Source: an uncultured Thermodesulfobacteriaceae bacterium (lineage in GTDB: Bacteria > Desulfobacterota > Dissulfuribacteria > Dissulfuribacterales > UBA3076). Taken from it: a stretch of 34,873 bases of DNA. Of this stretch, positions 7,291 to 26,389 are shown in pieces. The translations under genes and the position numbers were made by a program. Position 1 is the first letter of the stretch. Each line of letters opens with the position of its first letter. The stretch spans positions 1-34,873 of the forward strand of contig CAZPDU010000070.1 in NCBI GenBank assembly GCA_964585405.1, given 5' to 3'. The notes beneath the pieces are model-generated. The model was not told the origin of the DNA. It searched no databases and saw nothing but the letters and a program-made list of their open reading frames with translations.

Positions 7291-7294
7291 GTCT

Positions 7295-9335: not shown

Positions 9336-9364
9336 ATACTCAACTATAACATTTCGTATATAAA

Positions 9365-10276
9365 ATGAATTTAGCCCCTATAGTTCTTTTCGTATACAAC
9401 CGCCCGTGGCACACTCAACAAACTGTTAAAGCTCTCCAGAAAAATGAGCTGGCTGATCTGAGTGACCTGTTCATCTATTCAGATGGCCCTAAAGACGATC
9501 AAAGTCAAGAAACGGTTCAAAAGGTCAGAAAGTATATTCATACTATTGATGGATTTAAGACATTAACTGTTCAAAAACGAGAAAAAAATTTGGGTTTAGC
9601 CAATTCCATTATTTCTGGTGTTACAGAAATAGTTAACAAATATGACCGGATTATTGTATTAGAGGATGATATAACCACGTCACCCTATTTTTTGAGATAT
9701 ATGAATGATGCTCTTAATTTTTACCAAGACGAAGAGAGAATAATGCATATCTCCGGCTATATGTTTCCAGTTAATTACATAGGACTTCAGGAAACTTTTT
9801 TCTACCGAGTCACGTCATGCTGGGGATGGGCAACGTGGAGCCGAGCATGGAAGTATTTCAAAAAAGATGTCAAATGGGTATATCAAATTTTTTCGAAGGA
9901 AGAAAGAAGAGCCTTCAACCTCGACGGCAGTCACAATTTTTGGTCTCAAGTAGAAGGCAATAAATTAGGCAAATTAAATAGCTGGGCAATTTTTTGGTAT
10001 GCCTCGGTCTTCAAAAACCAAGGTCTATGCCTGCATCCCTGTCAGTCACTCACTAATAATATCGGACATGACGGTTCCGGAATTCATTGCGGCAATTCCA
10101 AAAAATTTACGGTTTCGCCTATAGATAAACCTATTAGCTATTTTGAGACCTCAATCAAAGAGGACCAGTTAGCTTTAGCAAGAATGAAGTCTTTTTATCG
10201 CCGCCACGATGGAAATATTATTCAACGTTTGGCCGGTTCTTTAAAACAAAAATGTTTCTATAATGCAGTCCATTAA
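9365..10276 (+). CDS. GT-A fold glycosyltransferase (GT2-like)
   Basis: APIVLFVYNRP, IYSDGP, NLGLANSI, IIVLEDD, SCWGWATW, NIGHDGSG. Confidence 0.9.
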   Translation: MNLAPIVLFVYNRPWHTQQTVKALQKNELADLSDLFIYSDGPKDDQSQETVQKVRKYIHTIDGFKTLTVQKREKNLGLANSIISGVTEIVNKYDRIIVLEDDITTSPYFLRYMNDALNFYQDEERIMHISGYMFPVNYIGLQETFFYRVTSCWGWATWSRAWKYFKKDVKWVYQIFSKEERRAFNLDGSHNFWSQVEGNKLGKLNSWAIFWYASVFKNQGLCLHPCQSLTNNIGHDGSGIHCGNSKKFTVSPIDKPISYFETSIKEDQLALARMKSFYRRHDGNIIQRLAGSLKQKCFYNAVH

Positions 10277-11129
10277 TAAGGAACGCGAAATATCATTTAG
10301 AGATATTTGCTTGGCTGAGAGCGATAAAAGGGAAGTTGAAAGACTGTTAAAAATATCACCTCATAATCCACCTCAACTGGAGGATATATGGATGTTGATG
10401 GACAAAGTATGGGATGAGTTTGGATGTGATAATCGGAAACCGGACTGGAAAAACATCAGAAAATTTTATTCTCATCCAATATGGTTATTAAATGGACTTT
10501 TTATTGAACAACATGATTTGTCAATGCAACGCAGGAATGCAATCAGTGATTGGATTGATTATAATCCTTCTATAAGAAAAATATTGGACTACGGCGGCGG
10601 TTTCGGCACGCTGGCCAGATTAATTAATAACAAAAAACCCTCTTTATTAGTGGATATATATGAACCACACCTTTCTTATTATTCAAGACAAAAAATATCC
10701 GATTATCCCCAAATACAATTTATTAGTAAGATTAAAGACAGGTATGATGCCCTTGTAAGCACCGATGTGCTCGAACATGTACCTGATCCTCTGAAAACAT
10801 TTGAGGAAATGATTTTATCTGTCAAGAATAATGGGTATTTGATTATTGCCAACAATTTTTTCCCGATCATAAAATGCCATCTGCCACAAACATTTCATTT
10901 AAGATATACTTTTAATATATTTGCAAAACTTATGGGTCTGGTAATTTGTGGACCATTAGAAGAAAGCCATGCAACGATATTCAAAAAAAATAGTAATAAA
11001 CCTGTTAATTGGCGAATTGTCAGGCCGTTAGAAAAAGTATCTAAAGGTCTCTTTCCTTTCCTTCAGTTTTCCAAACCGGTTTTAAGACCGATTTACAAGT
11101 TTGTGAAACATGAATATTCTTCACGTTAA
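10263..11129 (+). CDS. Class I SAM-dependent methyltransferase
   Basis: ILDYGGGFG motif I, YDALVSTDVLEHVPDP, NGYLII. Confidence 0.9.
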   Translation: MQSINKEREISFRDICLAESDKREVERLLKISPHNPPQLEDIWMLMDKVWDEFGCDNRKPDWKNIRKFYSHPIWLLNGLFIEQHDLSMQRRNAISDWIDYNPSIRKILDYGGGFGTLARLINNKKPSLLVDIYEPHLSYYSRQKISDYPQIQFISKIKDRYDALVSTDVLEHVPDPLKTFEEMILSVKNNGYLIIANNFFPIIKCHLPQTFHLRYTFNIFAKLMGLVICGPLEESHATIFKKNSNKPVNWRIVRPLEKVSKGLFPFLQFSKPVLRPIYKFVKHEYSSR

Positions 11130-12351
11130 TGCCTATGATATCTCAGGCGGCGCAGCGCGTGCCGCTCACCGAATCCATAAAGGTCTGCAAGGAATTGGCG
11201 TAGGCTCAAAAATGCTTGTGCAGACCAAATCAAGCGATGACAAATCCGTCATAGACCCTGGCAATAAACTTAAAAGAGGGCTTGCCCTGCTTCGCCCTAC
11301 TTTTGATTCTGCTTTTAAAAAACTTTCTTCAGGAGGCTCTAAAACAATCTTCTCACCCGCATGGCTCCCTTTTTCAGGCATTCTTTCTCAGATTAATTCT
11401 ATTTCGCCGGATATTATCCATCTCCATTGGATTTGTGACGGCATGCTGCGGATTGAAGAGCTTAAACGAATTAATAAACCAATAATCTGGACTTTGCATG
11501 ATATGTGGTCATTTACCGGCGGGTGTCATTACAATGATGGTTGTGAACGCTTTCAGCAAGCCTGTGGCAGTTGTCCGCAATTGAATAGAAGCGGTAAAAA
11601 TGACCTGAGTCGTTCTGTATTGAGACGTAAAAAAAAGGCATGGAGTAAACTTAATATTACCATTGTAGCACCAAGCACCTGGCTTGCTGAATGCGCAAAA
11701 GAAAGCAGCTTGTTCAGCGGACGCCGCATGGAGGTGATTCATAACGGATTAAATTTAAATTTGTTTAAACCGATTAATAAAACCACTGCTCGCAAGATAT
11801 GGAATTTACCAATCAACAAAAAGTTGATTCTCTTTGGGGGAATGAGTGCAACCGGTGATCTCAGGAAGGGATTTGACCTGCTTTATGAAGGGCTAAAACA
11901 ATTATCTGCCCAATGGTCAAACGGAGCAGAGTTGATAGTTTTTGGTTCAAGTGAACCGGAAAACCCGCCTGATTTTGGCCTGCCGGTGCATTATCTGGGG
12001 TATTTGTATGATGATGTAAGCCTCGCGCTTCTATATGCTGCGGCAGATGTTATGGTTACTCCGTCAAAACAGGATAATCTGCCGAATACGGTTGTGGAAT
12101 CATTGGCCTGTGGCACATCTGCTGTAGCATTTGATGTCGGCGGTATGCCGGATATCATTGAACACAAAATAAACGGTTACCTTGCAAAACCCTTTGATAC
12201 CTTTGACCTTGCTGCCGGAATTGACTGTGTATTGTCTGATGAAAAAAGATATAGAGATCTGTGCATAAAGGCCCGAGAAAAGGCGGTGACCTGTTTTGAC
12301 ATCGAAAAGATAGCAAGGCAGTATGCTGAGTTGTATGAGTCGATTATTTGA
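11110..12351 (+). CDS. GT4 glycosyltransferase (WcaC-like)
   Basis: GGAARAAHR, DIIHLHW, WTLHDMWSFTGGCHY...C...CGSCP, RKG, DNLPNTVVESLACG. Confidence 0.93.
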   Translation: MNILHVNAYDISGGAARAAHRIHKGLQGIGVGSKMLVQTKSSDDKSVIDPGNKLKRGLALLRPTFDSAFKKLSSGGSKTIFSPAWLPFSGILSQINSISPDIIHLHWICDGMLRIEELKRINKPIIWTLHDMWSFTGGCHYNDGCERFQQACGSCPQLNRSGKNDLSRSVLRRKKKAWSKLNITIVAPSTWLAECAKESSLFSGRRMEVIHNGLNLNLFKPINKTTARKIWNLPINKKLILFGGMSATGDLRKGFDLLYEGLKQLSAQWSNGAELIVFGSSEPENPPDFGLPVHYLGYLYDDVSLALLYAAADVMVTPSKQDNLPNTVVESLACGTSAVAFDVGGMPDIIEHKINGYLAKPFDTFDLAAGIDCVLSDEKRYRDLCIKAREKAVTCFDIEKIARQYAELYESII

Positions 12352-12382: not shown

Positions 12383-13306
12383 TTAAATTGACTTATGATT
12401 GGTTTTTGAAAAACTTTCTGCTTGAATCAAGTAGATGCCTCGATGAATTAGATAGCTAATTACATAACGTAAAATATTAAGCCCTAATCCTATAAAATAG
12501 CATCCTGGTATAGGATAATGTTTTTTAAAAAGTGGGGAAAGCTGTTGTATATCCCTATGAGAGCGTCTATTTTTAAAAGTTTCAAGAAATTGGCGAAATG
12601 TGAGGATTCCAGGGCTTTGAGCCAAGGATGTCTTTTCTTGATCAATAAAGACTTTTGTGTCTGTCGCAATAAAGAGCGGTATTCCGGATTTGCGGCATCT
12701 TATGTAAAAGTCATGATCTGCATAATAGTGAGGCAGGCTTTCGTCGTCAAGCAAACCTATGCGTTTAAATATTGAAGCAGGTATCAGAACACCTCGCCCC
12801 CCTGCAATAAGTTTGGTCTCTACAAGGCCATTATGTGCCTTTTTCTTGGCTGCGCTTATATTTCTGGTAGCCAAAAAAGTTGGGAAACCGATTAATAAGG
12901 CTGTTCTTGCTGTTATTACAAGGACTTTACCCGTAGACGCATCGCACTGAACAGGGGCTATAATGGCTTCACCCTTAATCTGTTTAAGACGATTAACCAA
13001 TTTTTCAATTGTGTCTGGTTCAAGAAAACAGTCATTATTCAAAAGCATTACTGCATCAGCGCCTCTTTTTAAGGCCTCTTTTATTCCTAAATTAGTTGCT
13101 CCTGACCACCAAAGTTTTTCGCTTCCTATTACTCGAATTACTTCAGGAAATTCTAGCTGTAATTCAGACTTGGTATTATCCGTAGAGCCGTGATCTACTA
13201 CTATGACTTCAAAATTTGTGTATGTACTTTTTTGCATTGATTCCAGACATAGGCGAGTTTGCCTCCACCCGTTATATGCCGGGATGACTATGAAAACCTT
13301 AATCAT
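12383..13306 (-). CDS. GT2 glycosyltransferase (WbbL/rhamnosyltransferase-like)
   Basis: IVIPAYN, VVDHGSTD, LWWSGATN, LLNND, HYYADHDF. Confidence 0.9.
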   Translation of the reverse strand: MIKVFIVIPAYNGWRQTRLCLESMQKSTYTNFEVIVVDHGSTDNTKSELQLEFPEVIRVIGSEKLWWSGATNLGIKEALKRGADAVMLLNNDCFLEPDTIEKLVNRLKQIKGEAIIAPVQCDASTGKVLVITARTALLIGFPTFLATRNISAAKKKAHNGLVETKLIAGGRGVLIPASIFKRIGLLDDESLPHYYADHDFYIRCRKSGIPLFIATDTKVFIDQEKTSLAQSPGILTFRQFLETFKNRRSHRDIQQLSPLFKKHYPIPGCYFIGLGLNILRYVISYLIHRGIYLIQAESFSKTNHKSI

Positions 13307-13322: not shown

Positions 13323-14222
13323 TTAAAGCCGTTTAGAATAATAATCTCTCAAAAGACCCTGTACCCCAGCGGGGAGTGAGCTTACAGCCAGAGATAGAAA
13401 AGCGCTCATGCTCGGATACGTTTTGATTGAATGGGCAAGATCCTGACGTGCCTTTGTCATATTACCATAATAGAGGGCATGTTGACCCCAATAACGAAAG
13501 GCCTCCGCCATTATAATTCTTTTTTTTTGCATATAGATATGAGGGGCTCGATTTAATGCCTTATCTATTATCTTAAAATAATCTGTTCTCATCTGTTCAA
13601 AAGGTTGAATAGTTGAATAACTATTTTTTTGCTTGTGAACCCTTACTAAAGGTTCTGGAATTTCAATGACCCGAGAAATCTCGCCCAATCGAATCCAAAG
13701 ATCAAGATCCTCCCTTGTCTTTAACGATTCATCAAAACCACCAACTTTATCCAAAAATTTTTTTCTACATAACGTGGAGGAAGTACATTGCAAAGGATTT
13801 GGCCATAAAATAGTATGCCATTTATTTCGGCTTGGAGAACGGTAATTACGTATTGTTTCTCCCCCCTGTTCATCTCTGCGTATTTGCCAGCTATAGGTTA
13901 ATCCTGCCGAATTATCTTCTTGAATGATGCCAACAGCCTTTTCCAGATATCCGGGAAGCCATTCGTCATCAGCATCCAAAAAAGCTGCAAATTCTCCCTT
14001 GCATTCAGCAATACCGCAATTACGCGCAGCAGAAGGGCCGGCTTGCTTTTGGAAAATATAATGCACTTTACTTCCAAATTGTTTTACTACTTTACTGGTA
14101 TTATCAGTAGAACCATTATCTACGACAATAATTTCATTTTGGACTTTTTGTGTTAAAGCTGAACGGATAGCACGCTCAATAAAAGATTCACTATTATATG
14201 CGGGGATAATGACAGACAACAT
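13323..14222 (-). CDS. GT2 glycosyltransferase
   Basis: SVIIPAYN, VVDNGSTD, GPSAARNCG, FLDADD, GGFDE, EDLDLW. Confidence 0.93.
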   Translation of the reverse strand: MLSVIIPAYNSESFIERAIRSALTQKVQNEIIVVDNGSTDNTSKVVKQFGSKVHYIFQKQAGPSAARNCGIAECKGEFAAFLDADDEWLPGYLEKAVGIIQEDNSAGLTYSWQIRRDEQGGETIRNYRSPSRNKWHTILWPNPLQCTSSTLCRKKFLDKVGGFDESLKTREDLDLWIRLGEISRVIEIPEPLVRVHKQKNSYSTIQPFEQMRTDYFKIIDKALNRAPHIYMQKKRIIMAEAFRYWGQHALYYGNMTKARQDLAHSIKTYPSMSAFLSLAVSSLPAGVQGLLRDYYSKRL

Positions 14223-14293
14223 TTTAATATTTATGTAGTATATGAGTGTTATAATATATTTTTAGATTCTGATTTTTTAACAGGATTATCAAT

Positions 14294-15493
14294 CTATGGC
14301 TTAGTCCTTTTAAAAGATTGTATTGCCTCTTCATACAGCTGATTATATTGTTTTGCTGTATTGTTCCAGGTTAGCTCATGTTCCAGCATCCATTTACGGC
14401 CAGCAAGGCCGGCTGCCTTGAGATCTCTTTTGCCCTTGATTATATCATCAAGGGCAATTGATAACGCATTTTCAGCCCCTGGAGGCACTAACCATCCAGC
14501 TTCACTATTTGTAACCAGTTCACGCGTTCCATCAATATCTGTGGCCAACACAGGCATGGCTGCCGCCATTGCCTCGTGGACTACACTGGGCCTGCCTTCC
14601 AGATAACTAGGGAGAATAAAAAGGTGATGATCTCCCATCAGTTCTGCAATTTGAGCTGGAGACACATTTCCCAAAAAATGCACATTTGCATCAATTCCTA
14701 AAATGGCCGCAAGTGAGCTCAGATAGCCTTTTTCAGGCCCGCTTCCAACCACAGTCAGCATCCATGGGAAATCAGTTTTTGAAATAGCTAACGCTTTTAA
14801 AAGCACGTCTAAACCTTTACGGGGAATCAAGCTTCCAATGAAAAGTAGCTTAAATGGCGACACGGAAACACTTTGACGATTGCGAGGCACGGCATAAAAG
14901 ACATCGTCGGCACCATCTGAGACAAATTTGATCTTTTCAGTCATGTCTGGATTTTGTCTTTTGAGCTCATTCGTAATCGCCTGACTCACTCCGATTGTAA
15001 AACTGGAACCTTTAAGGGATTTATTGTGCAGCCAAGAAAAAGGCCCAAGCTTTTTTGCCTTGTGAATATCTGATCCCCTGAGGGTAGTGACAACTGGTTT
15101 ACGGTGTATAGGTTGGGTTAATATTGCTACGGCCCCGCAGGCAGACCAGTGGGCATGTATAATATCATTCCGTTTGGCCAGCTTAATAAGTGATAAAGCC
15201 ATACTGCTCAGAAAAGGCGGAAGCAGTCCATATAGCAAGGGTTGTTCAGCCAGTGCCGTAGGTATTCCTCCCGGTTGCTGAGCTAAACGTTGCCAGTACC
15301 ATGGCGCATAACGAAAACGGATAACATTATAGTTATTAGGCCAGGTTGCACATTGAATGCCTGAAGGAGTCAATACGGTACACACAAGGTCTAGTTTTAT
15401 TTCCGCCAGTACCAGCCTGTGTACGAAAGGGCCTGAAATATCACTAGGGCTGGATGGATATGACGTTGTAAGGTGTAGTATCCGCAATGTCAT
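14294..15493 (-). CDS. GT4 glycosyltransferase
   Basis: LTTSYP, IIHAHW, FIGSLIPRKG, EGRPSVVHEAMA (ExxxxxxxE). Confidence 0.93.
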   Translation of the reverse strand: MTLRILHLTTSYPSSPSDISGPFVHRLVLAEIKLDLVCTVLTPSGIQCATWPNNYNVIRFRYAPWYWQRLAQQPGGIPTALAEQPLLYGLLPPFLSSMALSLIKLAKRNDIIHAHWSACGAVAILTQPIHRKPVVTTLRGSDIHKAKKLGPFSWLHNKSLKGSSFTIGVSQAITNELKRQNPDMTEKIKFVSDGADDVFYAVPRNRQSVSVSPFKLLFIGSLIPRKGLDVLLKALAISKTDFPWMLTVVGSGPEKGYLSSLAAILGIDANVHFLGNVSPAQIAELMGDHHLFILPSYLEGRPSVVHEAMAAAMPVLATDIDGTRELVTNSEAGWLVPPGAENALSIALDDIIKGKRDLKAAGLAGRKWMLEHELTWNNTAKQYNQLYEEAIQSFKRTKP

Positions 15494-15788
15494 TATTGAA
15501 GGCCTTGATTATAGTCCATGTCAAACCACATGGCGCAAAAAAGAACTGCAGTCCAAAAATATAAGGAAATGCGGAAAAGAGTGTATTGGCTTTGTTTACG
15601 GTACCTTTTCGGTTACGATCAAGTAGCATGATAGATCTCTAAAAGTAAAACACATTTTGTAAGAGTTAGACCTAACAATACACTTTCCAATAATTGAGTT
15701 TCGCCCATAGTTTTTACTAATAAGATATTCTTTTACAATTTTCTGAACGGTTTATTAGTTGTGTTGAGGTATAGAAAATTGACGTGAA

Positions 15789-15822
15789 GTGAAACTCCCC
15801 GCCATAAATGGCCGGGTATTCC
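15789..15822. repeat. Imperfect GC-rich palindrome resembling a REP or IS200/IS605-type end
   Basis: GTGAAACT-CCCCGCCA-TAAA-TGGCCGGG-TATTCC: 8-bp stem with one mismatch in an AT-rich spacer. Family resemblance is from memory, not from a search. Confidence 0.35.
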
Positions 15823-15885
15823 GCATGGATTTTATAAAGATACATACTTAGAAGCAGTAGGATGCAAATGGCAGAAAATTATTTT

Positions 15886-16734
15886 TTATTCCACTCGATC
15901 ATAGCGCATCTGGGTAATCTGTTCAGAAATGAGCCCCATCAGAAAAACCATTATTCCAACACTTAGGAGTAATGCCGACATATTTGTAAAACTGTGGTGT
16001 GTGCAATAACTATATATATAATATACCAGGCCAGTGAGTAAGAAAAAGGCACTAACCGGTAAAAAAATCCTCATCGGTGAAAATAGTGTTGCGATGCGCA
16101 GAATAATAAGGATAAATCTTGAACCATCCTCTAAAAGCTTTATTTTGCTTTCACCTATTCTTCTGTGCTGACAAATTGGAACGTACTTGATTGTATAGCC
16201 GCTTCGAAGATAGGTAAGGGTACTGGTTGTCGGATAAGAAAATGTATTGGGAAAGAGATACAGAAATTTTATTACTTTATCCTTATGTAAGACCCTGAAG
16301 CCGGATGTAAGATCCTTTATTGGGTATTTGGCAACGTAAGAAGCCAGTTTGTTGTAAAACCAATTAGCTATTCTACGCCCTAATGAGGCGTGATTAATAG
16401 AACTGCGGGCACCAACCACCATGTCGTAATGTTCCGACTCCTCAAGAAGCCTTGCGATATCAGCCGGATCATGTTGCCCGTCTCCATCCATCAACACTAT
16501 TAAGTCTCCCGAGGCGTTTCGTATACCTGTCTTAACCGCTGCCCCATTGCCGATGTTATAAGGATGCTGAATGACCTTTGCCCCGGCCTCCCGAGCCTTA
16601 TTTGCAGTGTTGTCCGTGCTGCCGTCATCAATCACGAGAATCTCAAAATCAGGGTAAAGTGAATTGATGTGAGCAACTATTTGGCCGATTACGGTCTCTT
16701 CATTATAGGCAGGTATAACTATCGATATATTCAC
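15886..16734 (-). CDS. DPM1-like GT2 (polyprenol-phosphate glycosyltransferase) with two C-terminal TM helices
   Basis: IPAYNEE, IDDGSTD, NIGNGAAVKTG, MDGDGQHDP, DMVVGAR, DLTSGFR, RRIGESK and a hydrophobic C-terminus. GTG start overlaps the OST stop (GTGA, 16734-16731). Confidence 0.92.
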   Translation of the reverse strand: MNISIVIPAYNEETVIGQIVAHINSLYPDFEILVIDDGSTDNTANKAREAGAKVIQHPYNIGNGAAVKTGIRNASGDLIVLMDGDGQHDPADIARLLEESEHYDMVVGARSSINHASLGRRIANWFYNKLASYVAKYPIKDLTSGFRVLHKDKVIKFLYLFPNTFSYPTTSTLTYLRSGYTIKYVPICQHRRIGESKIKLLEDGSRFILIILRIATLFSPMRIFLPVSAFFLLTGLVYYIYSYCTHHSFTNMSALLLSVGIMVFLMGLISEQITQMRYDRVE

Positions 16735-18965
16735 TGTCCCCTATCTCCTACTACCTCCCAAAGTTGATATGATGGAGTATTTATAACTACAGGCCTGAAA
16801 TATGCGGGATTAAAAGTATATCTTAAAAATAATTTATTAAAAACCGATTCTGAAATATGCATGTCCATCAAGGCCCCAAACCTTGGAGAGATCCACATCT
16901 CGAAGTGTGGTCCGCTATCTCTTTGATAGCTTTTGCTAAGTATTCTCTGCCTCTCACGTTTAACAAGATGCGTAAGACCTATCATCCTATTACTTGTCCG
17001 CAAGATTCCCTTTTCTATATGGATATCCAGACCCTCGCTTCCCTTTATATATCCGTTTTCTTCACGCACATTATAAAAGGCCTTGTATACTGGATGTATT
17101 CCTTCTCTCTTTTCTACATCCCAGGTACCAAGCCAATACCACCAATAGCTGGTGACAGTGAGACGCCAATCCAGAAAGAGATAAACAGGACGAGTATTTT
17201 GCGGATAGAAAAAGCAAAGCCACTTATCCACATCCTGTAAATCTCCGACAGGCTCGAGTTCTGCTGAAGACAACAATTCCCTTGCCTTCGCGGGACCAGC
17301 TGACAGGACACCTTTAATGAGATCTACACCTCGGACAGGATCATTGCCTACCGCCTTATAGACATTACTAATACCATCCATTCCTGAGCTTACATAAAAG
17401 CGCATGAAGTTGGCTGCCAGACGTTCATCGCACGTGGCAAAAGGAAGGCCATTGTAAAAGGATCTGTGTCCGCCGTGAAGCGAACCGTCACCCACAGTCC
17501 CCCTTGCGGCCCAGTAATTCAAAGGATATCCATGGTCCCACCATGCCCAGATCACTGCATCTTTGGGGGTTTCTCTTGATGCCATATCCATGCCGGCGAC
17601 AAGGTGCGGAGGCTCCTTGGGCCAGAATGTTTTATCCATGTCCTTACTCAGAGCCGGCCATACAATAACAATTACCAATATAGGTGCTAATATAGAAAGA
17701 ATGAAAATTTTTCGGCGCCAGTACCAGATCTCGGATATCATATATCCTATTCCAAGGGCTGTAACAGGCGCAAAAAAGATCAGAAAGCGCTTGGCGAAAA
17801 AAAACGACAGCGCAGCCAGTATCAATGGAACGGATATAAACAGACTCTCCTTTGGACGACGATAGAATAAACACATAAGACCTGCGCATGCAAAAATGAA
17901 TGCAGGAAGGCTGTCGGTTGTCTTGGCTACAATCTCGTTGAATGAAGGTATTGCCTGCTCTGAAATTGTGGCCCCAATTGGAGGCCAAATCTCGGCTACT
18001 TCCTTTGTAGATATGTAGTGAAAGGAATTTGCGACATGTCTAAAAATCTTGAGCGGAAGATCCAGACCCATCCACAGTAGTATCACTCCGATTGCCAGCC
18101 CAGCTATTCCTAAAAATATAAATGCCTCTCTTCTTACGGGACGATAAAAAAATACCAGTGCCACAGCTAATGGTAACATCGAGACAACCGTCGTTACCTG
18201 AGGAGTTTGATCCCACCACCATAGAAAAAGCAAAAAAATAGCCATACCGCCGATAAAATAGAGATAACGCTTCCGATCGACTTCAATACCAAACTTAAGG
18301 AAGCAAAAAGCAGCCCCTGTGGCCCATGTGACGTTCATGCAATCTGTGTCAAACCAGCCTAAACTGCTCCTATAAACATAGTAATGTGAGAGCAACCCCA
18401 TTAGCGCGGCAGTGAGGCCCATGGCTGGACCTCCGTAAAAACGTCCCAATGCATATAAAGGCAGAGCCAGTAAAAGACCGAGGAATGCAGGAAGTACTGC
18501 CCCAATCCAGTTCAGAGAAAAAGGCGTAATTTTGGCCAAGCCTGCAGCCATCATCGAAATGAGGGGCGGTGGAATTTTTCTCGATACACCCTTGGGCACA
18601 TCACGATTTTTATCTACCGACGTATATGTGCCTTCAGCAAGATCCTTTGCCATAGTAAGATAGAAATAGCCATCAAAGGTGGTAAGTAAGGGCTCTCCTT
18701 TGTATAGAGCCAGTTCGGGGTGATTTTTCCAGTCCCGGATATCCTCTATGCGCACAAGCAGACCCACTCCAAGGATAAGTAAAAGTGCCAAGGCCTCTAT
18801 CCATAGGTTGTATTGAGCAAGGCGTTTGACATGATCCGTTACAGTATTTTTCCATTTATGAATATACAGCGATCCAATATCTCGAGAGCTTATCGCTGGA
18901 ACGGCAGTGATGGGTGCTGATTTTTTTTTGATCTTGGCCAAAGGCCTTTTACTTTTGCGACTCAA
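16731..18965 (-). CDS. pglB: STT3/PglB/AglB-family oligosaccharyltransferase (protein N-glycosylation)
   Basis: Multi-pass N-terminal half with TTFDGYFY (catalytic Asp), YRSSLGWFDTD (DxD), TISE (TIxE) and KRF. Soluble C-terminal domain with WWDHG (17543-17529) followed by DGSLH. Confidence 0.93.
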   Translation of the reverse strand: MSRKSKRPLAKIKKKSAPITAVPAISSRDIGSLYIHKWKNTVTDHVKRLAQYNLWIEALALLLILGVGLLVRIEDIRDWKNHPELALYKGEPLLTTFDGYFYLTMAKDLAEGTYTSVDKNRDVPKGVSRKIPPPLISMMAAGLAKITPFSLNWIGAVLPAFLGLLLALPLYALGRFYGGPAMGLTAALMGLLSHYYVYRSSLGWFDTDCMNVTWATGAAFCFLKFGIEVDRKRYLYFIGGMAIFLLFLWWWDQTPQVTTVVSMLPLAVALVFFYRPVRREAFIFLGIAGLAIGVILLWMGLDLPLKIFRHVANSFHYISTKEVAEIWPPIGATISEQAIPSFNEIVAKTTDSLPAFIFACAGLMCLFYRRPKESLFISVPLILAALSFFFAKRFLIFFAPVTALGIGYMISEIWYWRRKIFILSILAPILVIVIVWPALSKDMDKTFWPKEPPHLVAGMDMASRETPKDAVIWAWWDHGYPLNYWAARGTVGDGSLHGGHRSFYNGLPFATCDERLAANFMRFYVSSGMDGISNVYKAVGNDPVRGVDLIKGVLSAGPAKARELLSSAELEPVGDLQDVDKWLCFFYPQNTRPVYLFLDWRLTVTSYWWYWLGTWDVEKREGIHPVYKAFYNVREENGYIKGSEGLDIHIEKGILRTSNRMIGLTHLVKRERQRILSKSYQRDSGPHFEMWISPRFGALMDMHISESVFNKLFLRYTFNPAYFRPVVINTPSYQLWEVVGDRGQ

Positions 18966-19087
18966 TGCATCTACCTGATTAGTTTACTTAGATTCAAAAA
19001 CGCGTACTGAAGTAGATCAATCATACTGCAACTCTATCGTATATTAAGTTTCGTTCCTGAAAGCCTTTTTGCTTCAGCTTAACTATT

Positions 19088-21961
19088 TCATTTCATTATC
19101 TTATTCCAGATCTCTATAACTTCTGATCTTAGGCCTTTGAAATCCTCAGCCTCCACATAAGTCGATCTTTCTTGCAGGCTAAGCCTGTTTATTGTTTTTC
19201 TGTACCTCATATTAGCCTTTAAAAGGGTATCTGTGTAACTTTTGGGTATTAGGTTTATCTTTTCAAGTACATCGAGCAATCTAATGCTATTACTCCATTC
19301 AGCCAGGTCAGGATGCCGGAAAGCATTCGCCAATACCATATACTGCATAATAAAATCAATATCAGTCAGCCCGCCAGAATCATATTTAAGGTCAAATTTG
19401 CCTGGCCGTCTGTTCCCATATTTGTTTATTAATCTGTCTCTCATTGAGATGATGGAATGCTTTAAAATATCCGTATCACGGGGCTGGGCAATTATCTTTT
19501 TTCTCAGTTCATGAAACCTTTTGCATATCCTCATATCACCTGAAATCGTTCTCGCTCTCACAAGCGCCTGATGTTCCCAAGCCCAGGCCTGGTCCAATTG
19601 ATATTGGGAAAAGGCCTCCAGACTGCTTACCAAGACTCCTGATACCCCGCTTGGACGAAGGCGCATGTCTACCTCATACAGGACTCCTGCCTTGGTCTGG
19701 ATCGTCAAAATATGAATAATTCTTTGTCCCAGGCGGGTATAAAACATAGTGCTATCAAGTGGCTTTGGGCCGGCGGTCATTTGGCCCACATTCCCGTCAT
19801 GGAGAAAAACGAGATCAAGATCCGAACTATACCCCATTTCTGTTCCTCCAAGTTTGCCATAGGCAACAACTGCAAAGCCACAATTCTCTCTCTTAGCTTG
19901 GCCTGATATATAAATGGGCGCGCCGTGTCGATCTATCAGATGTTCCAGAGCAAGGACAAGGACTCTGTCTATAACTATCTCCGCAATGTCCGTAAGGTGT
20001 TGACTTACCTCCTGTACAGATAGCGCCCCTGATATGTCAGCCGCAGCTACGCGCAGCATATTGGCCTGTCTGAATCTCCTCATTTCATCCATCTGCTCCT
20101 CCAAGTCGGTCGATGGCACTCTGGAGAGCATCTTTTTTATGTCCTTTTTTAGAATTGACCTGTCAGGAGGTGAGTAAAGAGTGACTGGAGAAAGTAGTTC
20201 ATCCAGAAGAACAGGCTGTTTTGATAACAGCGTCGTTATCCATGCCCCTCTTGAACAAAGCCTTATCAGGTGTGTGAGGGCATTTGGATTTTCCAGAAGA
20301 AGAGACAGATAACAAGTCCGCCTCTCAATTGCCTCTATAAGAGCAAGTGTCCGTTTGAGAGCAAGATCTGGATGATCCGTCCTCCCTGCCTCCTCAAGCA
20401 CAAGCGGTATCAGACGGTCTAGCCGGTCTCGCCCCGAGGAACTGAGGCTCAGGCTAGTCCTGGAATTCTTTAGGCTTTTGAGAAAAATCAAGGTCTCATC
20501 GGTTTTTTCAAAACCCAATGACTGAAGGGTTCTTACAGCAAGGTCTTTATCGATTGTCCCAAACCAAATGCCAGATAAAAGCTGTTTTTTTAAATCCTTA
20601 GTTTTATTACTTTCCCTTGAAAAGAGTCCCTTAAAATGATAGTGAACTGTGTCCATATGTCTGAGAAGCACATTCACATACTCTTTCCAGCTCTGAAAAC
20701 CCATAGAAAGTGCGAGGCGGGCCTGAGAAAGGGTATCAGAGGGCAGCTTGTGTGTCTGTTGATCAGCGTATTCCTGCAGACGGTGTTCAGTTTTGCGTAG
20801 GAATATATACGCATCCCTTAATTGCCTGCATACGTCTTTGGGCAAAAAGCTTTGGGCAGCAAGGAGATCCAGTACTCGAAGAATGCTCCTTTCCCTAAGT
20901 TCAGGTATAGTGCCACCTCTTATGAGTTGAAAGGTCTGGCCTATAAACTCGATTTCCCGTATCCCCCCGGCGCCCAGCTTTATGTTATCTTTAATTCCTT
21001 TCTTACGCGTCTCCTGCTCTATAAGTTGTTTCATTTCCCTTAAGGAATCAAAAGCCCCATAGTCCAGATAACGGCGATACACAAAGGGCCTCAATGTTTC
21101 AAGCAGCAAATCTCCATTTTTGCCACCGGCAATGGGGCGGGCCTTGACCATTGCGTATCGTTCCCACTCTCTCCCCTGACTTTGATAATATTCTTCCATT
21201 GCATCGAAGCTCAAAACCACGGGGCCATTTTCACCATATGGTCTGAGCCTAGTATCCATACGAAATACAATACCCTCGGCGGTAGTCGCGCCTATAACAC
21301 TTATTAATTTGCGGCAAAGCCGGGTAAAAAATTCTTCGTTAGTGACGGATTTTGGGCCATCTCTAGTATGTCCGGACCCTGGGTATGTAAATATCAGATC
21401 AATGTCCGAGGAAAAGTTGAGTTCTCTTGCTCCCAGTTTGCCCATACCGAGAACAACCAAAAATTGGGGCCTGCCTTCCTTGTCCACAGGATAGCCGATT
21501 TCCTGGCATTGCCAGAGATGTAAGAGATTGAGAGCAGCTTTCAGACATGCCTCTGCCAGGGCTGAAAGGTCCGCCATAGTCTCTTGAAGTTCTGCCTGCT
21601 GAGCAAGGTCTCTCCACGCTATCCTGACCATCTCTCGCCTTCTAAGACGACGTAAAATTATTGCAAGCTGTTTATTCTCTCTGGCTTCTTTCACTGCATT
21701 GTTGATTATTCGGTCATAATTACCATTAGTATAAGAATTTATGAGATCACCGCTTTTCAAAAGATCTAGGAGCAGCCCTGGTTCCTTAAAACAATTCCTT
21801 GCGACAAATTCACTAAAGGACCAAACTTGTTTCGCAGTATTTATTATGTGTGGATCATCAGGAACAGGAAGACCGAATGAAAGCGCGGCCTGTGCAAAAT
21901 TTTTCCAGTAATTATCGGCCTTTAACAGAAGTTTTTCAGGTAGTTGTATGTGTGGCGACAT
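19088..21961 (-). CDS. glnE: Bifunctional glutamine synthetase adenylyltransferase/deadenylase
   Basis: Two NTase repeats, GMGKLGARELNFSSDIDL and AYGKLGGTEMGYSSDLDL, plus DTRLRPYG/DMRLRPSG, WERYA/WEHQA, KLGAGGIREIEF. Confidence 0.98.
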   Translation of the reverse strand: MSPHIQLPEKLLLKADNYWKNFAQAALSFGLPVPDDPHIINTAKQVWSFSEFVARNCFKEPGLLLDLLKSGDLINSYTNGNYDRIINNAVKEARENKQLAIILRRLRRREMVRIAWRDLAQQAELQETMADLSALAEACLKAALNLLHLWQCQEIGYPVDKEGRPQFLVVLGMGKLGARELNFSSDIDLIFTYPGSGHTRDGPKSVTNEEFFTRLCRKLISVIGATTAEGIVFRMDTRLRPYGENGPVVLSFDAMEEYYQSQGREWERYAMVKARPIAGGKNGDLLLETLRPFVYRRYLDYGAFDSLREMKQLIEQETRKKGIKDNIKLGAGGIREIEFIGQTFQLIRGGTIPELRERSILRVLDLLAAQSFLPKDVCRQLRDAYIFLRKTEHRLQEYADQQTHKLPSDTLSQARLALSMGFQSWKEYVNVLLRHMDTVHYHFKGLFSRESNKTKDLKKQLLSGIWFGTIDKDLAVRTLQSLGFEKTDETLIFLKSLKNSRTSLSLSSSGRDRLDRLIPLVLEEAGRTDHPDLALKRTLALIEAIERRTCYLSLLLENPNALTHLIRLCSRGAWITTLLSKQPVLLDELLSPVTLYSPPDRSILKKDIKKMLSRVPSTDLEEQMDEMRRFRQANMLRVAAADISGALSVQEVSQHLTDIAEIVIDRVLVLALEHLIDRHGAPIYISGQAKRENCGFAVVAYGKLGGTEMGYSSDLDLVFLHDGNVGQMTAGPKPLDSTMFYTRLGQRIIHILTIQTKAGVLYEVDMRLRPSGVSGVLVSSLEAFSQYQLDQAWAWEHQALVRARTISGDMRICKRFHELRKKIIAQPRDTDILKHSIISMRDRLINKYGNRRPGKFDLKYDSGGLTDIDFIMQYMVLANAFRHPDLAEWSNSIRLLDVLEKINLIPKSYTDTLLKANMRYRKTINRLSLQERSTYVEAEDFKGLRSEVIEIWNKIMK

Positions 21962-22235: not shown

Positions 22236-23396
22236 TTGGCATTTAAACAGGTAAAAGGACCGGACTCAGGTACAGTTTTGAAAACTGGAAATAATTTAGG
22301 TGCAAAACCCCGGATTTTGATTAGATCCACAAATTGGATTGGAGATGCCATCATGACTACACCTGCAGTGATGGCAGTTAGAAAAAACTATCCCCATGCC
22401 CACATTTCTATTCTAGGCAGGCAATGGGTAAAATCTGTCTTTTCTGGAAATCCTTCTGTGAATGAAATTATAACGTACAGCAGTAAAGGACGTAATAGCT
22501 CAATAATAGAAAAGATAAAATTTGCCAAATATCTCAAGTATAAAAAATTTGATCTTGCTATCCTGTTTCCAAATTCCTTCGAGTCGGCCATAATCACTTG
22601 GCTTGCCCACATACCCAGGCGCTTGGGTTATGCCACCGAAGCAAGACGCCCGTTTCTCACCGTCCCCGTATCAGTACCTGAAGATCGCAGGACTAAACAC
22701 GAAATATTCTACTACTTAAATCTTATTAATCATATAGATTACTTGTATTCTAATAACCATTCAACAAATGGAAGTGGAGATAAAAAAAGGAACGAACTGT
22801 TTCTTAAAGTCCCGGCCCAAGGGGAATCTGGGGCTAAGCGAATACTTGATCAGATTGGTTTAGATCAAAGGTCGTTTCTAATAGGGTTTAATCCGGGTGC
22901 CGCATATGGTCCAGCAAAATGCTGGCCGGTAAAGAGATTTGCATATTTAGGACAGGCTTTAGTGAAGCGTTTCAAGGATTGTCATATATTGGTCTTTGGG
23001 ACCGACCGGGAAAAGTCCGTGGCAGAGGATATTTGTGGTCCTATTGGTAAAATGGGCCATAATCTGGCTGGAAAGACGAGCCTTGCTGAGGCCATAGGCC
23101 TGATATCAAATCTCGATTTGCTCGTGACGAATGATTCCGGCCTTATGCACGTGGGAGCGGCCTTGGGAGTTCCTTTGGTTGCAATTTTTGGTTCTACAAA
23201 TCCGGTTACCACAGGTCCCTGGTCAGACAATAATATTATAATTCGTCATGAACTTCCATGCAGTCCATGTCTTAAACGCAGTTGTCCCACAGATTTCAGC
23301 TGCATGCTCAGTATCGAAGTTGAGGAAGTTTTGCAGGCATGTCTGCAACAGTTAAACAGGAAGAGTTGGCTTTTGAATGCATACGCAAATAAATAA
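22236..23396 (+). CDS. waaF: LPS heptosyltransferase II (GT9)
   Basis: RSTNWIGDAIM, LFPNSFESA, NPGAAYGPAKCWP, TNDSGLMH. True start may be a few codons downstream. Confidence 0.93.
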   Translation: MAFKQVKGPDSGTVLKTGNNLGAKPRILIRSTNWIGDAIMTTPAVMAVRKNYPHAHISILGRQWVKSVFSGNPSVNEIITYSSKGRNSSIIEKIKFAKYLKYKKFDLAILFPNSFESAIITWLAHIPRRLGYATEARRPFLTVPVSVPEDRRTKHEIFYYLNLINHIDYLYSNNHSTNGSGDKKRNELFLKVPAQGESGAKRILDQIGLDQRSFLIGFNPGAAYGPAKCWPVKRFAYLGQALVKRFKDCHILVFGTDREKSVAEDICGPIGKMGHNLAGKTSLAEAIGLISNLDLLVTNDSGLMHVGAALGVPLVAIFGSTNPVTTGPWSDNNIIIRHELPCSPCLKRSCPTDFSCMLSIEVEEVLQACLQQLNRKSWLLNAYANK

Positions 23397-23964
23397 TAAA
23401 AGAGCCGTGTTTCTTGACAGGGATGGGACAATCAATGAAGAAGTCGGTTATCTTTGCCGATTAGAGGATCTGACCTTAATAGAAAGGGTCGGATCAGCTA
23501 TTCGTCTCCTTAATGATTCCGGTTATAAAGTTGTAGTAATAACCAATCAATCCGGAGTAGCCAGAGGCCTTTTAGACGAAATTTTTGTTCAGAAAGTTCA
23601 TGCAGAAATAGCGAGGCGTCTTTCCAAAAGTAATGCCTATGTTGACAAGTGGTATTACTGTCCGCATCATGCGACTGAAGGTAAAGGGAAATATAGGATA
23701 GAATGCCACTGTCGTAAGCCATCTACAGGAATGGTAGATCTTGCCATAACAGAATTAGGCATAATTCCAGAGGAATCTTTTGTTGTGGGAGATAGTATTC
23801 GAGACCTAGAAACAGCTTGGAATGTGGGGGCTCAACCCGTATTGGTCTTGACTGGTTACGGGAAGAAGACTCTTTCTCGACTTTTACCTGATCAGAAAAA
23901 GAAGTTGCCGCACATTGCTTACGATCTATTTGATGCCTGTACATGGATATGCGAATACTGTTGA
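23377..23964 (+). CDS. gmhB: D-glycero-D-manno-heptose 1,7-bisphosphate phosphatase (HAD IIIA)
   Basis: FLDRDGTIN, TNQSGVARG, CPHH...CHCRKP, VGD. Confidence 0.95.
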   Translation: MHTQINNKRAVFLDRDGTINEEVGYLCRLEDLTLIERVGSAIRLLNDSGYKVVVITNQSGVARGLLDEIFVQKVHAEIARRLSKSNAYVDKWYYCPHHATEGKGKYRIECHCRKPSTGMVDLAITELGIIPEESFVVGDSIRDLETAWNVGAQPVLVLTGYGKKTLSRLLPDQKKKLPHIAYDLFDACTWICEYC

Positions 23965-25001
23965 TAAAGCTCAGCGCTATAGGCGATGTGGTACATACAC
24001 TCCCCTCACTTGCTGCTTTACGCAAGAGATATCCCGATGCACATATAAGCTGGTTGGTAGGTGAGGCGGCATCTGACCTGCTTTGCCATCATCCTATGCT
24101 TCATGAGGTAATAATTTATCCCCAGCGCAGATTTGGACAACTAGGGGGCGATCTCAGACAGTGGCCGAAATTGATTAAAGAGATCAGAAATTTTATTAAT
24201 CTTCTTCGCAGTAAAAGCTACGATGTTGTGATAGATTTTCAGGGTCTGTTAAAAAGTGGTATATTGACGGGCATTTCTCGAGGTAAATGCAAGCTTGGTT
24301 TTGCGAAAAGTAGAGAAGGAAGTTCTATATTTCTCACTGATAAGCTTCCACGCTATGATCCTGATGAACATGCAGTAATCCGCTATCTCAGGCTGACTTC
24401 TTATCTTGATGCAGATGTCGGGGAACCTGAATTCCCCTTAGCCATCGAAAAGGCTGATACAGAAAAGATGTCTCAACTATTACAGGATACAGGTGTAGGA
24501 GAAAGTCGCATACTTTGCCTTAATCCTGGAGCTACATGGGAAACAAAGAGATGGACATCAAGGGGTTTCGCAGAGGTAGCTGACCGTTGTTTCGAGCTTT
24601 GGAATATGACTACCATCATAGTTGGAGGGCCGGGCGATAAAGGCCTTGCCTCTGATATCGCACTGTGCGCAAAGCATCCTGTCATCGATTTCACTGGAAT
24701 AACCAGCCTCAGGACCCTTGCCGCCTTATACCAAAGAACAGAGGTCGTGGTAAGTACTGATACAGGCCCCATGCATCTCGCAGCAGCAGCTGGAGCCCCA
24801 GTGGTTGCTTTGTTCGGGCCTACTGCTCCATGGAGGACAGGGCCTTTTGGTAAAAAACAACAGGTCATCAGATTGGGACTTCAATGCAGTCCCTGTTTCA
24901 AACATCACTGCCCTGAGCCGAAATGCATGGTGGATATTTCTCCCGAACAGGTTATAAAAGCGGTCAAAAAAATTAGAAAAACTGGAAGACCAGGTGATTG
25001 A
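23949..25001 (+). CDS. waaC: LPS heptosyltransferase I-like (GT9)
   Basis: MRILLIKLSAIGDVVHTLP, DFQGLLKSG, TDTGPMHLAAA, LFGPT. Exact acceptor specificity is inferred. Confidence 0.82.
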   Translation: MRILLIKLSAIGDVVHTLPSLAALRKRYPDAHISWLVGEAASDLLCHHPMLHEVIIYPQRRFGQLGGDLRQWPKLIKEIRNFINLLRSKSYDVVIDFQGLLKSGILTGISRGKCKLGFAKSREGSSIFLTDKLPRYDPDEHAVIRYLRLTSYLDADVGEPEFPLAIEKADTEKMSQLLQDTGVGESRILCLNPGATWETKRWTSRGFAEVADRCFELWNMTTIIVGGPGDKGLASDIALCAKHPVIDFTGITSLRTLAALYQRTEVVVSTDTGPMHLAAAAGAPVVALFGPTAPWRTGPFGKKQQVIRLGLQCSPCFKHHCPEPKCMVDISPEQVIKAVKKIRKTGRPGD

Positions 25002-25026
25002 GTGATTTGATGATTGGAGGTAAGTT

Positions 25027-25218
25027 ATGAACAAATCAATTAGTCCAGAGCTATTAAATATTCTTGCATGTCCCAAGTGTAAGGGAGAAGTGAAGCTTAC
25101 TGAAAATGAAGACGGCTTGATATGCGAGAGTTGCGGTCTGCTCTATGAAATAAGGGAAGGTATCCCGGTTATGTTGATAGATGAGGCCAAACCTTATCCG
25201 GTAAAAAGAAATAAATAA
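25027..25218 (+). CDS. Trm112-like (YcaR/UPF0434) protein
   Basis: LLNILACPKCKG...LICESCGLLYEIREGIPVMLIDEA. RBS GGAGGT. Confidence 0.93.
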   Translation: MNKSISPELLNILACPKCKGEVKLTENEDGLICESCGLLYEIREGIPVMLIDEAKPYPVKRNK

Positions 25219-25377
25219 ATCTTATGATGAAACCTGGTAAACAGGACTTCACTGAAAATTCTTCATTTGTAAAGAGAAAGATTTTCTAGAAAAAAACATA
25301 TTTGGCCTACATAGAAATGGCAAGGAAATCAGATCAACGCAGCGAATAGAACATTTTGAGCAAAATCAAAAAATGAA

Positions 25378-26364
25378 ATGGAAAATCATATAAAGATACT
25401 TAAGGAAGCTATTCGTCGATTTGACTCCTCTTGTCTGCTGGTGGCCGGAGATATCATGCTTGACCAGTTTGTCTGGGGTGACGTGTCGAGAATATCCCCT
25501 GAAGCACCGGTCCCTGTTGTAGAAGTTCAGAAGGAGACCGTACTACTTGGCGGTGCGGCAAATGTGGCAAATAATCTCCGGGCACTGGGCAGCCCTGTGA
25601 TCCTTGGGGGTGTGGTCGGGAAAGATGCCATGGGCCAAAACCTTCGGGAACTGGCCGTTTCCAAGGGTATAGATGTGACCTCTGTTATTGATGGCATACG
25701 CCCTACCACTATTAAGACCAGGATAATCGCCAGAGGCCAGCAGGTAGTGAGAGTTGACAGGGAAAACAATAGCTCCTTAAATGATTCATCAATAAAGGAC
25801 CTGACCAAGACCTTTGAAATACTGGCCCCTGGAATCGAAGGAATTATTGTGTCTGACTATGCCAAAGGCGTAGTCTCTGATCTATTCATGGCTGAATTAA
25901 AAAAAATCTCGAGCAAGAGAGGCATTCCGCTTTTAGTAGACCCTAAGCCTGCCCATAGCCATCTCTACCATGGAGTGACTCTGTTGACACCTAATCGGCA
26001 AGAGGCAGAGTTAATGGCGGGTCTTGAAATCAAAGATGCGGAAAACCTAACTAGGGCCGCACAAAAGATTCAGGAAAGAATGGGGACAGAAGCCGTACTT
26101 ATTACGCTGGGATCTCAAGGTATGGCTCTATGGCAAAAAGAAAACGGATTATTTACAGTACCGACTATGGCACGTGAGGTATTTGATGTAACGGGTGCCG
26201 GAGATACGGTCATAGCAACCATGGCTTTAGGAATAGTTAATGGGCTCAGTTTCGTTCAAGCGGCCTATTTAGCAAATATTGCCGCGGGTATAGTGGTTGG
26301 AAAGATCGGAACTGCTACTGTGGCGCCTGAAGAGATCATGGAGATATTGGAAAAAAAGGTATGA
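25378..26364 (+). CDS. rfaE1: D-glycero-beta-D-manno-heptose-7-phosphate kinase (stand-alone RfaE domain I)
   Basis: GDIMLD, RISPEAPVPV, GGAANVA, SDYAKG, TPNRQE, DVTGAGDTV. No fused adenylyltransferase domain. Confidence 0.95.
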   Translation: MENHIKILKEAIRRFDSSCLLVAGDIMLDQFVWGDVSRISPEAPVPVVEVQKETVLLGGAANVANNLRALGSPVILGGVVGKDAMGQNLRELAVSKGIDVTSVIDGIRPTTIKTRIIARGQQVVRVDRENNSSLNDSSIKDLTKTFEILAPGIEGIIVSDYAKGVVSDLFMAELKKISSKRGIPLLVDPKPAHSHLYHGVTLLTPNRQEAELMAGLEIKDAENLTRAAQKIQERMGTEAVLITLGSQGMALWQKENGLFTVPTMAREVFDVTGAGDTVIATMALGIVNGLSFVQAAYLANIAAGIVVGKIGTATVAPEEIMEILEKKV

Positions 26365-26389
26365 ATAGCATCCAGCAAAACCCTGATAA

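Follow-up and report, generated by a model that had tools for sequence, protein, structure and literature searches.

Oligosaccharyltransferases (OSTs) are conventionally divided by the lipid that carries their glycan donor: bacteria, through PglB, and eukaryotes draw on diphosphate-linked glycans that are started by a phosphoglycosyl transferase (PGT). Glycans that are carried on a monophosphate and initiated by a DPM1-like family 2 glycosyltransferase (GT2) are, to our knowledge and in the textbook account, confined to the Euryarchaeota, as in the Haloferax volcanii pathway from AglJ to AglB and the Methanococcus AglK-AglC-AglB pathway, AglR being a further gene of such pathways. Dolichyl monophosphate is the euryarchaeal N-glycan carrier (PMC11407970). 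Here we describe a bacterial locus with a comparable layout on contig CAZPDU010000070.1 of an uncultured Thermodesulfobacteriaceae bacterium (assembly GCA_964585405.1; 2.6 Mb in 333 contigs, about 90% complete). The window, by which we mean the whole 34,873-nucleotide stretch analysed, constitutes this contig (C70) and encodes on its minus strand a 744-residue STT3/PglB-type OST (16731-18965) and, directly downstream, a 282-residue GT2 of the polyprenyl-phosphate type (15886-16734; hereafter GT2, of "family A"). This pairing is kept in many relatives and suggests an archaeal-style sugar donor in bacteria.

The two genes overlap at their junction, where the GTG start of GT2 and the TGA stop of the OST share the tetranucleotide GTGA (16731-16734, minus strand), and AGGAGA lies about 9 nt upstream of the start codon. 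Two findings speak for the GTG start: the 25 orthologues in the alignment match at the N-terminus from residue 1 onward, and the same zero-gap junction is present in six close relatives (loci L016, L018, L019, L022, L024 and L053 in our numbering). A scan of positions 14200-19300 found no minus-strand terminator-like site between OST and GT2; over the whole interval, terminator-like sites numbered 9 against a shuffle mean of 4.5 (sd 2.0), and promoter-like sites stayed at shuffle level (12 against a mean of 12.4). A predicted complex of the OST (residues 46-744) with GT2 scored 0.00 and carries no weight for or against an association.

The OST is the single STT3 protein of the genome. Its membership in GT66 (STT3/AglB/PglB) is given by both characteristic regions, the membrane domain (Pfam STT3, PF02516; 66.5 bits, cut-off 24.5, E 4e-18) and the core periplasmic domain (STT3-PglB_core, PF21436; 42 bits, cut-off 23, E 2e-10). 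Matches among solved structures were only Campylobacter PglB chains, the closest being C. lari PglB (E 1e-20), and the score against the PglB equivalog for undecaprenyl diphosphate (Und-PP)-oligosaccharide-protein glycotransferases (NF050801) reached 99 bits with a cut-off of 1300. The complete GT66 motif set is present, invariant in 26 aligned family members and placed opposite PglB by HMMER alignment. The first catalytic aspartate, D98, lies in TTFDGY (18666-18683, minus strand, as are the following motifs; aligned to 3rce), in a region that we take to correspond to PglB D56; the DxD motif is FDTDC (D206 and D208; 18339-18353), aligned to PglB YDTDM; the TIXE-type motif of external loop 5 is TISEQ (17955-17969), in which S335, E336 and Q337 are invariant, aligned to PglB TIMEV; AKRF (17784-17795) contains the invariant R393, aligned to PglB GLRF, whose arginine presumably binds the lipid phosphate; and WWDHG (residues 475-479; 17529-17543), with W475, W476, D477, H478 and G479 all invariant, stands opposite PglB WWDYG. 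Because these catalytic residues are invariant and opposite the catalytic positions of PglB, the OST looks catalytically competent.

GT2 matches Pfam Glycos_transf_2 (PF00535; 114 bits, E 8e-33), and among NCBIfam models it scores highest against AglJ (TIGR04182; 141 bits), with residues 3-279 aligned to positions 2-288 of 293. Because this score falls far under the 325-bit equivalog cut-off, GT2 is best described from its sequence as AglJ-like, not as an AglJ, and it is an equivalog of no named member: further scores were 102 bits for PpgS, 92 for PgfS, 79 for the haloarchaeal dolichyl-phosphate hexose transferase and 73 for ArnC, whose cut-off is 529. Its solved relatives are the Pyrococcus Dol-P-Man synthase (DPMS; 5mlz), ArnC (9hwj) and cyanobacterial GtrB (5eke), and the ArnC alignment spans the whole protein, membrane part included. 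The DxD-type metal and nucleotide-sugar motif DGDGQH (residues 83-88; 16471-16488, minus strand) has D83, D85, G86, Q87 and H88 invariant in 25 orthologues (58-91% identity), and DLTSGFR (141-147; 16294-16314, minus strand) has D141 to G145 and R147 invariant; across the same set DDxS, DGDGQH and DLTSGxR do not vary, and the C-terminal GLISEQITQxRYDR aligns with ArnC GLLGEYI. A hydropathy scan places two C-terminal hydrophobic helices at about residues 206-224 and 247-265, followed by GLISEQITQMRYDR (15940-16119, minus strand), and this region aligns with the transmembrane part and GLLGEYI of ArnC. A preliminary description, made from the sequence of this DNA, had pointed to the GTGA overlap, to the motifs DGDGQH, VVGAR (106-110) and DLTSGFR and to two C-terminal transmembrane helices, and each of these is where it was said to be. 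With a GT-A domain carrying DxD, an interface region and two C-terminal transmembrane helices, GT2 can be assigned by sequence to the polyprenyl-phosphate glycosyltransferase class (DPM1/GtrB/ArnC/AglJ).

Within this class, a quick maximum-likelihood tree of 52 rows, which has SH-aLRT support values and long branches to the outgroups but includes no archaeal AglJ, AglK or AglD, separates the family A clade (support 91) from one that joins E. coli ArnC, P22 GtrB and a paralogue from contig C293 of the same genome (99), so that the grouping with GtrB and ArnC that would have spoken for a separate role was not recovered. All OST-adjacent GT2s fall within one 33-row subclade (87), to which the GT2s near PMT_2 or TPR proteins form a sister group (90). 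Because the tree holds no archaeal AglJ, AglK or AglD, the affinity to AglJ is read from hidden Markov model scores only, and nothing exceeded the TIGR04182 cut-off in genome G401 (that of L026) and 60 genomes of its phylum, the best score being 239 bits (L117).

The strongest evidence for a working relationship comes from the distribution of the pair. A word-indexed search found 220 OST homologues at E<=1e-10, with named sources that include Dissulfuribacter, Dissulfurirhabdus, Thermodesulfobacteriaceae, Desulfurivibrionaceae, Desulfobia and similar taxa. A scan of one genome per species gave 79 loci with OST relatives of 39-87% identity, all in metagenome-assembled genomes titled as Deltaproteobacteria or Thermodesulfobacteriota, with SeepSRB2 as the label of two among the closest. 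A GT2 adjoins the OST in 40 of these 79 loci, or in 40 of the 67 assessable ones, which have 900 nt or more of sequence on each side of the OST. Family A, at 58-90% identity to the window GT2, lies directly downstream on the same strand in 17 loci and directly upstream on the same strand in 12, with one further locus each for downstream and upstream positions on the opposite strand. The same slot directly downstream is held in 8 loci by family B, an unrelated 315-residue GT2 with two C-terminal helices, and in 1 by family C, a GT2 of 240 residues; no adjacent GT2 was detected in 39 loci, 12 of which are cut off within 900 nt of the OST on one side. Families B and C likewise have AglJ, PpgS and the dolichyl-phosphate hexose transferase as top matches and hence fall into the same enzyme class. 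In L119 and L123 the family C gene is followed by a DUF2304 protein, a partner known from GacI/GacJ (GlcNAc-P-undecaprenol) and PpgS/Rv3632 (polyprenyl-P-GalNAc) (10.1101/180810). Even among distant OSTs (23-29% identity), a C-like GT2 lies just upstream in 2 of 10 loci examined (L139, L142).

A sample of 401 genomes of the phylum, in which the OST was called at >=33% identity and E<=1e-100 and family A at >=49% identity, gives a similar picture. The OST occurs in 26 genomes and family A in 42; 20 have both, adjacent in 13. In 17 of the 26 OST genomes the OST adjoins a GT2 of family A, B or C, and family A lies elsewhere in 7 more. The six OST genomes that lack family A comprise two with family B adjacent, two with family C and DUF2304 adjacent, and two with no GT2 of any family within the 8-9 kb of sequence examined. 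Since related genomes are not independent, these counts are descriptive and overstate the number of separate events; the adjacency is nevertheless far beyond chance. Both enzymes carry the catalytic motifs of their families and their pairing is conserved. The preliminary suggestion that the OST and a polyprenyl-phosphate-type GT2 are linked has thus gained ground: because adjacency is kept in both gene orders, on both strands and with three GT2 families, functional coupling is well supported, and the occupation of one slot by three families in several arrangements is the strongest indication that the OST needs a polyprenyl-phosphate sugar synthase. That GT2 makes an undecaprenyl phosphate (Und-P)-sugar serving the OST pathway is, as a prediction from sequence, likewise well supported.

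The same distribution bears on the notion that GT2 is an ordinary membrane-anchored transferase that extends an Und-PP glycan already started, its likeness to polyprenyl-phosphate transferases being one of fold only. The GT2 family is very large, and the scores lie far under the cut-offs of all named polyprenyl-phosphate models, as this notion would have it; yet the full-length match takes in both C-terminal helices and a GLISEQI/GLLGEYI region that is typical of the class, and three separate families of one class occupy the slot, one with a class-specific DUF2304 partner, which makes an elongating role highly improbable.

What the OST would receive from GT2 is suggested by the gene that comes next. 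A GT4 glycosyltransferase (GT4a; 14294-15493, minus strand) begins 392 nt after GT2, a gap without an ORF of >=62 aa. Orthologues of GT4a (46-66% identity) directly follow OST-adjacent family B GT2s in L020, L021, L023, L029, L030 and L087 and an OST-adjacent family A GT2 in L024, and another follows the family B GT2 of L118. In L059, L064, L084 and L082 the pair is flanked by a different GT4 orthogroup (37-48% identity), which also flanks the GT2 of the OST-less locus L095; weaker GT4a matches at the matching place in L065 and L067 suggest its presence there too. In L123 the order is GT4-GT2(C)-DUF2304-GT4-OST. An OST-GT2-GT4 operon core therefore recurs with families A, B and C.

Further glycan genes complete the set in the window. 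By Pfam, two more GT2 genes (13323-14222 and 12383-13306) continue on the minus strand. They meet a convergent plus-strand group (6742-12351; Pfam and NCBIfam) that encodes a small HTH regulator, a Wzx-type flippase (7295-8602), an FkbM methyltransferase, a GT-A-like protein, a methyltransferase and a second GT4, and that presumably belongs to the OST pathway. A GDP-mannose 4,6-dehydratase and an epimerase/reductase for deoxyhexose supply (4376-6436, minus strand) are probably linked to it as well; the ORF of the latter (5624-6436, 270 aa) is matched by the Epimerase profile only from position 58, and an N-terminal truncation or a miscalled start is possible. The Wzx gene lies 7 kb from the pair. 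No GtrA-type or SMR-type small flippase accompanies the pair among the 30 ORFs of the window (Pfam), and an SMR-like gene beside the pair was seen only in L059 among the annotated loci.

In the mechanism that we propose, GT2, anchored in the membrane, would load undecaprenyl monophosphate with one sugar, drawn from a nucleotide sugar, at the cytoplasmic face, and the resulting Und-P-sugar would feed the co-translated STT3-type OST. In the window this sugar would most likely be the primer of a glycan, which the adjoining GT4, and probably also the further GT2, GT4 and methyltransferase genes, would extend; a flippase, possibly the Wzx of the cluster, would turn the lipid-linked glycan outward, and the OST would move it from the monophosphate carrier to an asparagine of exported proteins. 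In this scheme the identity of the acceptor lipid, the monophosphate linkage of the donor, the sequence of steps, the choice of flippase and the proteins modified are all inferred. A primer role is preferred for the window because the OST-GT2-GT4 operon is conserved and because a complete assembly set stands there without a PGT, polymerase or ligase. We hold tentatively, at a probability of about 0.38, that GT2 starts the Und-P-linked glycan that the OST transfers.

A simpler arrangement with the same kind of donor would have two components: GT2 makes an Und-P-monosaccharide, and the STT3-type enzyme, acting as GtrC, ArnT, GacL and TfpW do among GT-C enzymes, transfers this single sugar directly, without any en-bloc oligosaccharide, to a protein asparagine, possibly of pilins, or to another periplasmic acceptor. 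We know of no STT3 enzyme that is by nature a dedicated monosaccharide transferase. The pair does stand alone among housekeeping genes, with no other glycan gene by Pfam, in L027, L072 and L073, and the ORF layout of L044 mirrors that of L027; in L068, L097, L098, L100, L103, L129 and L130 the GT2 or OST has pilin or pilus genes close by. In 12 OST-less family A loci examined, the GT2 stands beside a PMT_2-type GT-C protein in L100, L101 and L102 and beside a TPR-bearing protein in L101, L103 and L110, so that in 5 of the 12 the sister clade has a GT-C-like neighbour, the classic layout of a single-sugar donor; a GT4 or Wzx is near the GT2 in L095, L096 and L099. Family C with its DUF2304 protein resembles GacI/GacJ, which make the monosaccharide donor for the GT-C enzyme GacL (10.1101/180810). 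Taken as a whole, family A would seem from its contexts and tree to supply GT-C-type enzymes, with an OST-associated branch. A single-sugar transfer is nonetheless improbable for the window, given that all three GT2 families share their operon with a conserved GT4, a cytoplasmic elongating enzyme, and that the window has a full set of further transferases together with Wzx.

The more conventional explanation turns on the PGTs and GT-C enzymes of the genome. Here a WecA-like or WbaP-like PGT encoded elsewhere would start an Und-PP glycan, the cluster transferases would build it and the OST would transfer it, GT2 supplying, in a GtrB/AglD-like role, an Und-P-sugar for a periplasmic side branch or decoration added by another GT-C enzyme. 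O-antigen-type clusters often lack a PGT of their own. The preliminary description had found neither a PGT nor a second GT-C enzyme at the locus. Among the 30 ORFs of the window there is indeed no Bac_transf or Glycos_transf_4 family and, besides the OST, no PMT, PMT_2 or other GT-C family (Pfam); at the scale of the genome neither absence holds, as four PGT candidates (two WbaP/EpsB-type, two WecA-like) and several GT-C-like proteins lie on other contigs, alongside two Wzy_C-family proteins, so that the PGT-free status applies to the locus only. Haloferax, where the final N-glycan sugar comes from its own dolichyl-phosphate carrier (PMC11407970), offers a precedent for such a decoration.

Set against this explanation, neither the window nor any of the nine annotated OST-GT2 loci related to it has a second GT-C enzyme by the pair, and the adjacency is specifically between OST and GT2, surviving changes of gene order and replacement of the GT2 family. 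Searches with the two Bac_transf PGTs of the genome, its two WecA-like proteins and MraY covered 92 OST loci with their flanks (1.2 Mb) and found a PGT at one locus only, L076. Along with the 40 of 79 adjacent pairs, this is the locus layout of a euryarchaeal-type monophosphate pathway, namely an OST with a polyprenyl-phosphate GT2 and no PGT. Each of the other GT-C candidates in the genome has, by position, a context of its own: the DUF2142 membrane protein on C293 adjoins its own GtrB/PgfS/ArnC-like GT2 and a Wzt ABC transporter, which leaves the STT3 protein as the nearest GT-C enzyme for the window GT2, and the polytopic TPR protein on C189 (13440-15191; L133) adjoins a UbiA prenyltransferase. 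With these points on both sides we consider a PGT-initiated pathway somewhat less likely than a monophosphate-linked primer.

Several observations weigh against a monophosphate-linked primer. Many bacterial glycan clusters use a PGT encoded elsewhere, and in this genome two candidates score above their NCBIfam cut-offs (EPS_sugtrans on C281, 395 bits; EpsB_2 on C6, 459 bits), with WecA-like proteins on C99 and C241; the DUF2142 protein (C293), the polytopic TPR protein (C189) and a weak PMT_2 match (C51) are other potential users of an Und-P-sugar. GT2 enzymes normally invert and thus give beta-linked Und-P-sugars, and an inverting OST would need an alpha-linked donor for the usual beta-N-linkage. 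The archaeal initiating enzyme yields an alpha-linked product fit for an inverting OST (PMC11407970), and the product of GacI is a beta-linked lipid sugar (10.1101/180810). The OST scores closer to PglB (NCBIfam, 99 bits) than to the archaeal STT3 model (35 bits), and the Desulfovibrio PglBs, although remote relatives with WWDWG as their motif, function in E. coli on donors linked to Und-PP (PMC12229607). There are 27 assessable OST loci without an adjacent GT2, and family A occurs without an OST (E<=1e-20) in 22 of 401 genomes; in these the GT2 often adjoins a PMT_2 or TPR GT-C protein, so that its family as a whole acts like a single-sugar donor synthase. The GT2 tree comes from a quick search, its outgroup branches are long and it lacks archaeal references, and the lipid carrier chemistry of both families is as yet a prediction.

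On balance we lean slightly towards an OST donor that is monophosphate-linked, whether it carries a glycan or a single sugar. The broader proposition is that a large bacterial OST family of the sulfate-reducer phylum, marked by an invariant WWDHG, uses undecaprenyl monophosphate as the carrier of its glycan, with an AglJ-, GacI- or PpgS-like GT2 in place of a PGT as the initiating enzyme. It would make archaeal-type N-glycosylation native to bacteria and OST, GT2 and GT4 a self-contained minimal cassette, possibly for type IV pilins, and we regard it as an even wager.

The surroundings of the pair and of its relatives present further recurrent features. The glutamine synthetase adenylyltransferase gene glnE (window 19088-21961) is kept upstream of the OST in L018, L024, L034 and L049, an order that holds at 52-84% OST identity with or without a following GT2, and in many loci a solitary OST stands between glnE and unrelated genes; with glnE kept in place, the OST occupies a stable chromosomal position after which the glycan genes vary. 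Beyond glnE lies a lipopolysaccharide inner-core set (22236-31207) of two heptosyltransferases, a GmhB-like phosphatase, a PfkB-type sugar kinase and a Kdo transferase, and its proximity means that the variable glycan cluster by the OST could instead serve the lipopolysaccharide outer core or O-antigen. In L027 the gene immediately after the OST-GT2 pair encodes a rhomboid protease (11025-11963), a same-size ORF occupies that place by layout in L044, and the window has a rhomboid gene 14 kb from the pair (33307-34026). UbiA-family prenyltransferase genes come after the GT2-OST-GT4 group in L059 (12599-13863) and L064 (11429-12412); L059 also has an SMR/EamA-like small transporter, and a UbiA protein with a transporter is reminiscent of polyprenyl-phosphate pentose donor pathways. 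At the other end of the window, about 1.4 kb (2277-3687) with a G+C content of 0.36-0.40 holds no ORF of >=100 aa, and scans of the window for Rfam families and tRNAs gave no match there or elsewhere.

Pilus genes recur beside the OST or a family A GT2: prepilin-type N_methyl genes in L068 (10070-12998), L100 (5980-9190) and L103 (2401-6882), pilNOPQ directly before the GT2 in L098 (1126-6882), a GspH pseudopilin in L097 (10324-10770), and PilY1-like giants flanking the OST in L129 (889-4746) and L130 (7154-11917). Type IV pilins may accordingly be a target of OST/GT2 glycosylation modules. The TPR proteins beside a GT2 or OST (L101, 1383-3527; L103, 2854-4944; L110, 7076-9145; L068, 10070-12553; L074, 4911-7298) have 7-8 N-terminal hydrophobic segments, their membrane part matches no Pfam family, and they look like an unnamed family of TPR-bearing GT-C-like transferases, whose homologue in the genome of the window is the C189 protein.

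If the proposal is right, a bacterial OST family tied to polyprenyl-phosphate GT2s would blur the division of lipid carriers between the domains of life and inform the history of OST and donor exchange between them, and a two- or three-gene glycosylation cassette that works without a PGT would be of interest for glycoengineering. The conserved pair is directly testable because cultured species, Dissulfuribacter thermophilus and Dissulfurirhabdus thermomarina, carry homologues of the OST family. In the literature outside subscription journals, judged from listings and abstract openings and from PMC4973528 and PMC12229607, we found no description of a bacterial OST coupled to a polyprenyl-phosphate GT2, and the papers containing WWDHG were unrelated by title and abstract opening.

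Three described systems can be set beside the locus. Like the euryarchaeal dolichyl-phosphate pathways, the window encodes an STT3-type OST with a DPM1-like GT2 whose top model is AglJ, and its cluster also supplies another cytoplasmic transferase, methyltransferases and a Wzx-like protein but no PGT; unlike them, it belongs to a bacterium, its lipid would be undecaprenyl rather than dolichyl phosphate, its OST is nearer in sequence to PglB than to archaeal STT3, and its GT2 stays at 141 bits against the AglJ cut-off of 325. With Campylobacter PglB and the Desulfovibrio PglBs, the latter characterised from the phylum of the window host (PMC12229607), the OST shares a single-subunit bacterial form, the same catalytic positions and a Gram-negative host; it differs in its low score against the PglB model (99 versus 1300 bits) and in having WWDHG where Campylobacter has WWDYG and Desulfovibrio WWDWG (PMC12229607), and its locus holds no PglC-type PGT or PglK but a translationally coupled polyprenyl-phosphate GT2 instead. 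The GT2/GT-C systems (GtrA/B/C, ArnC/ArnT, GacI/GacJ/GacL, PpgS/Rv3632, TfpW) likewise place a polyprenyl-phosphate GT2 beside a GT-C-fold enzyme, as do the sister-clade GT2s that adjoin PMT_2-type or TPR-bearing GT-C proteins, and the DUF2304 partner of family C beside some OSTs recalls GacI/GacJ and PpgS/Rv3632 (10.1101/180810). Here, unlike in those systems, the GT-C partner is an STT3-type OST with an intact WWDxG, no GtrA-type flippase is in the window, and GT2 stands apart from GtrB and ArnC in the quick tree. In its layout, then, the locus is nearest the euryarchaeal dolichyl-monophosphate pathways, in the sequence of its OST nearest PglB, and in its gene pair it resembles the GT2/GT-C systems.

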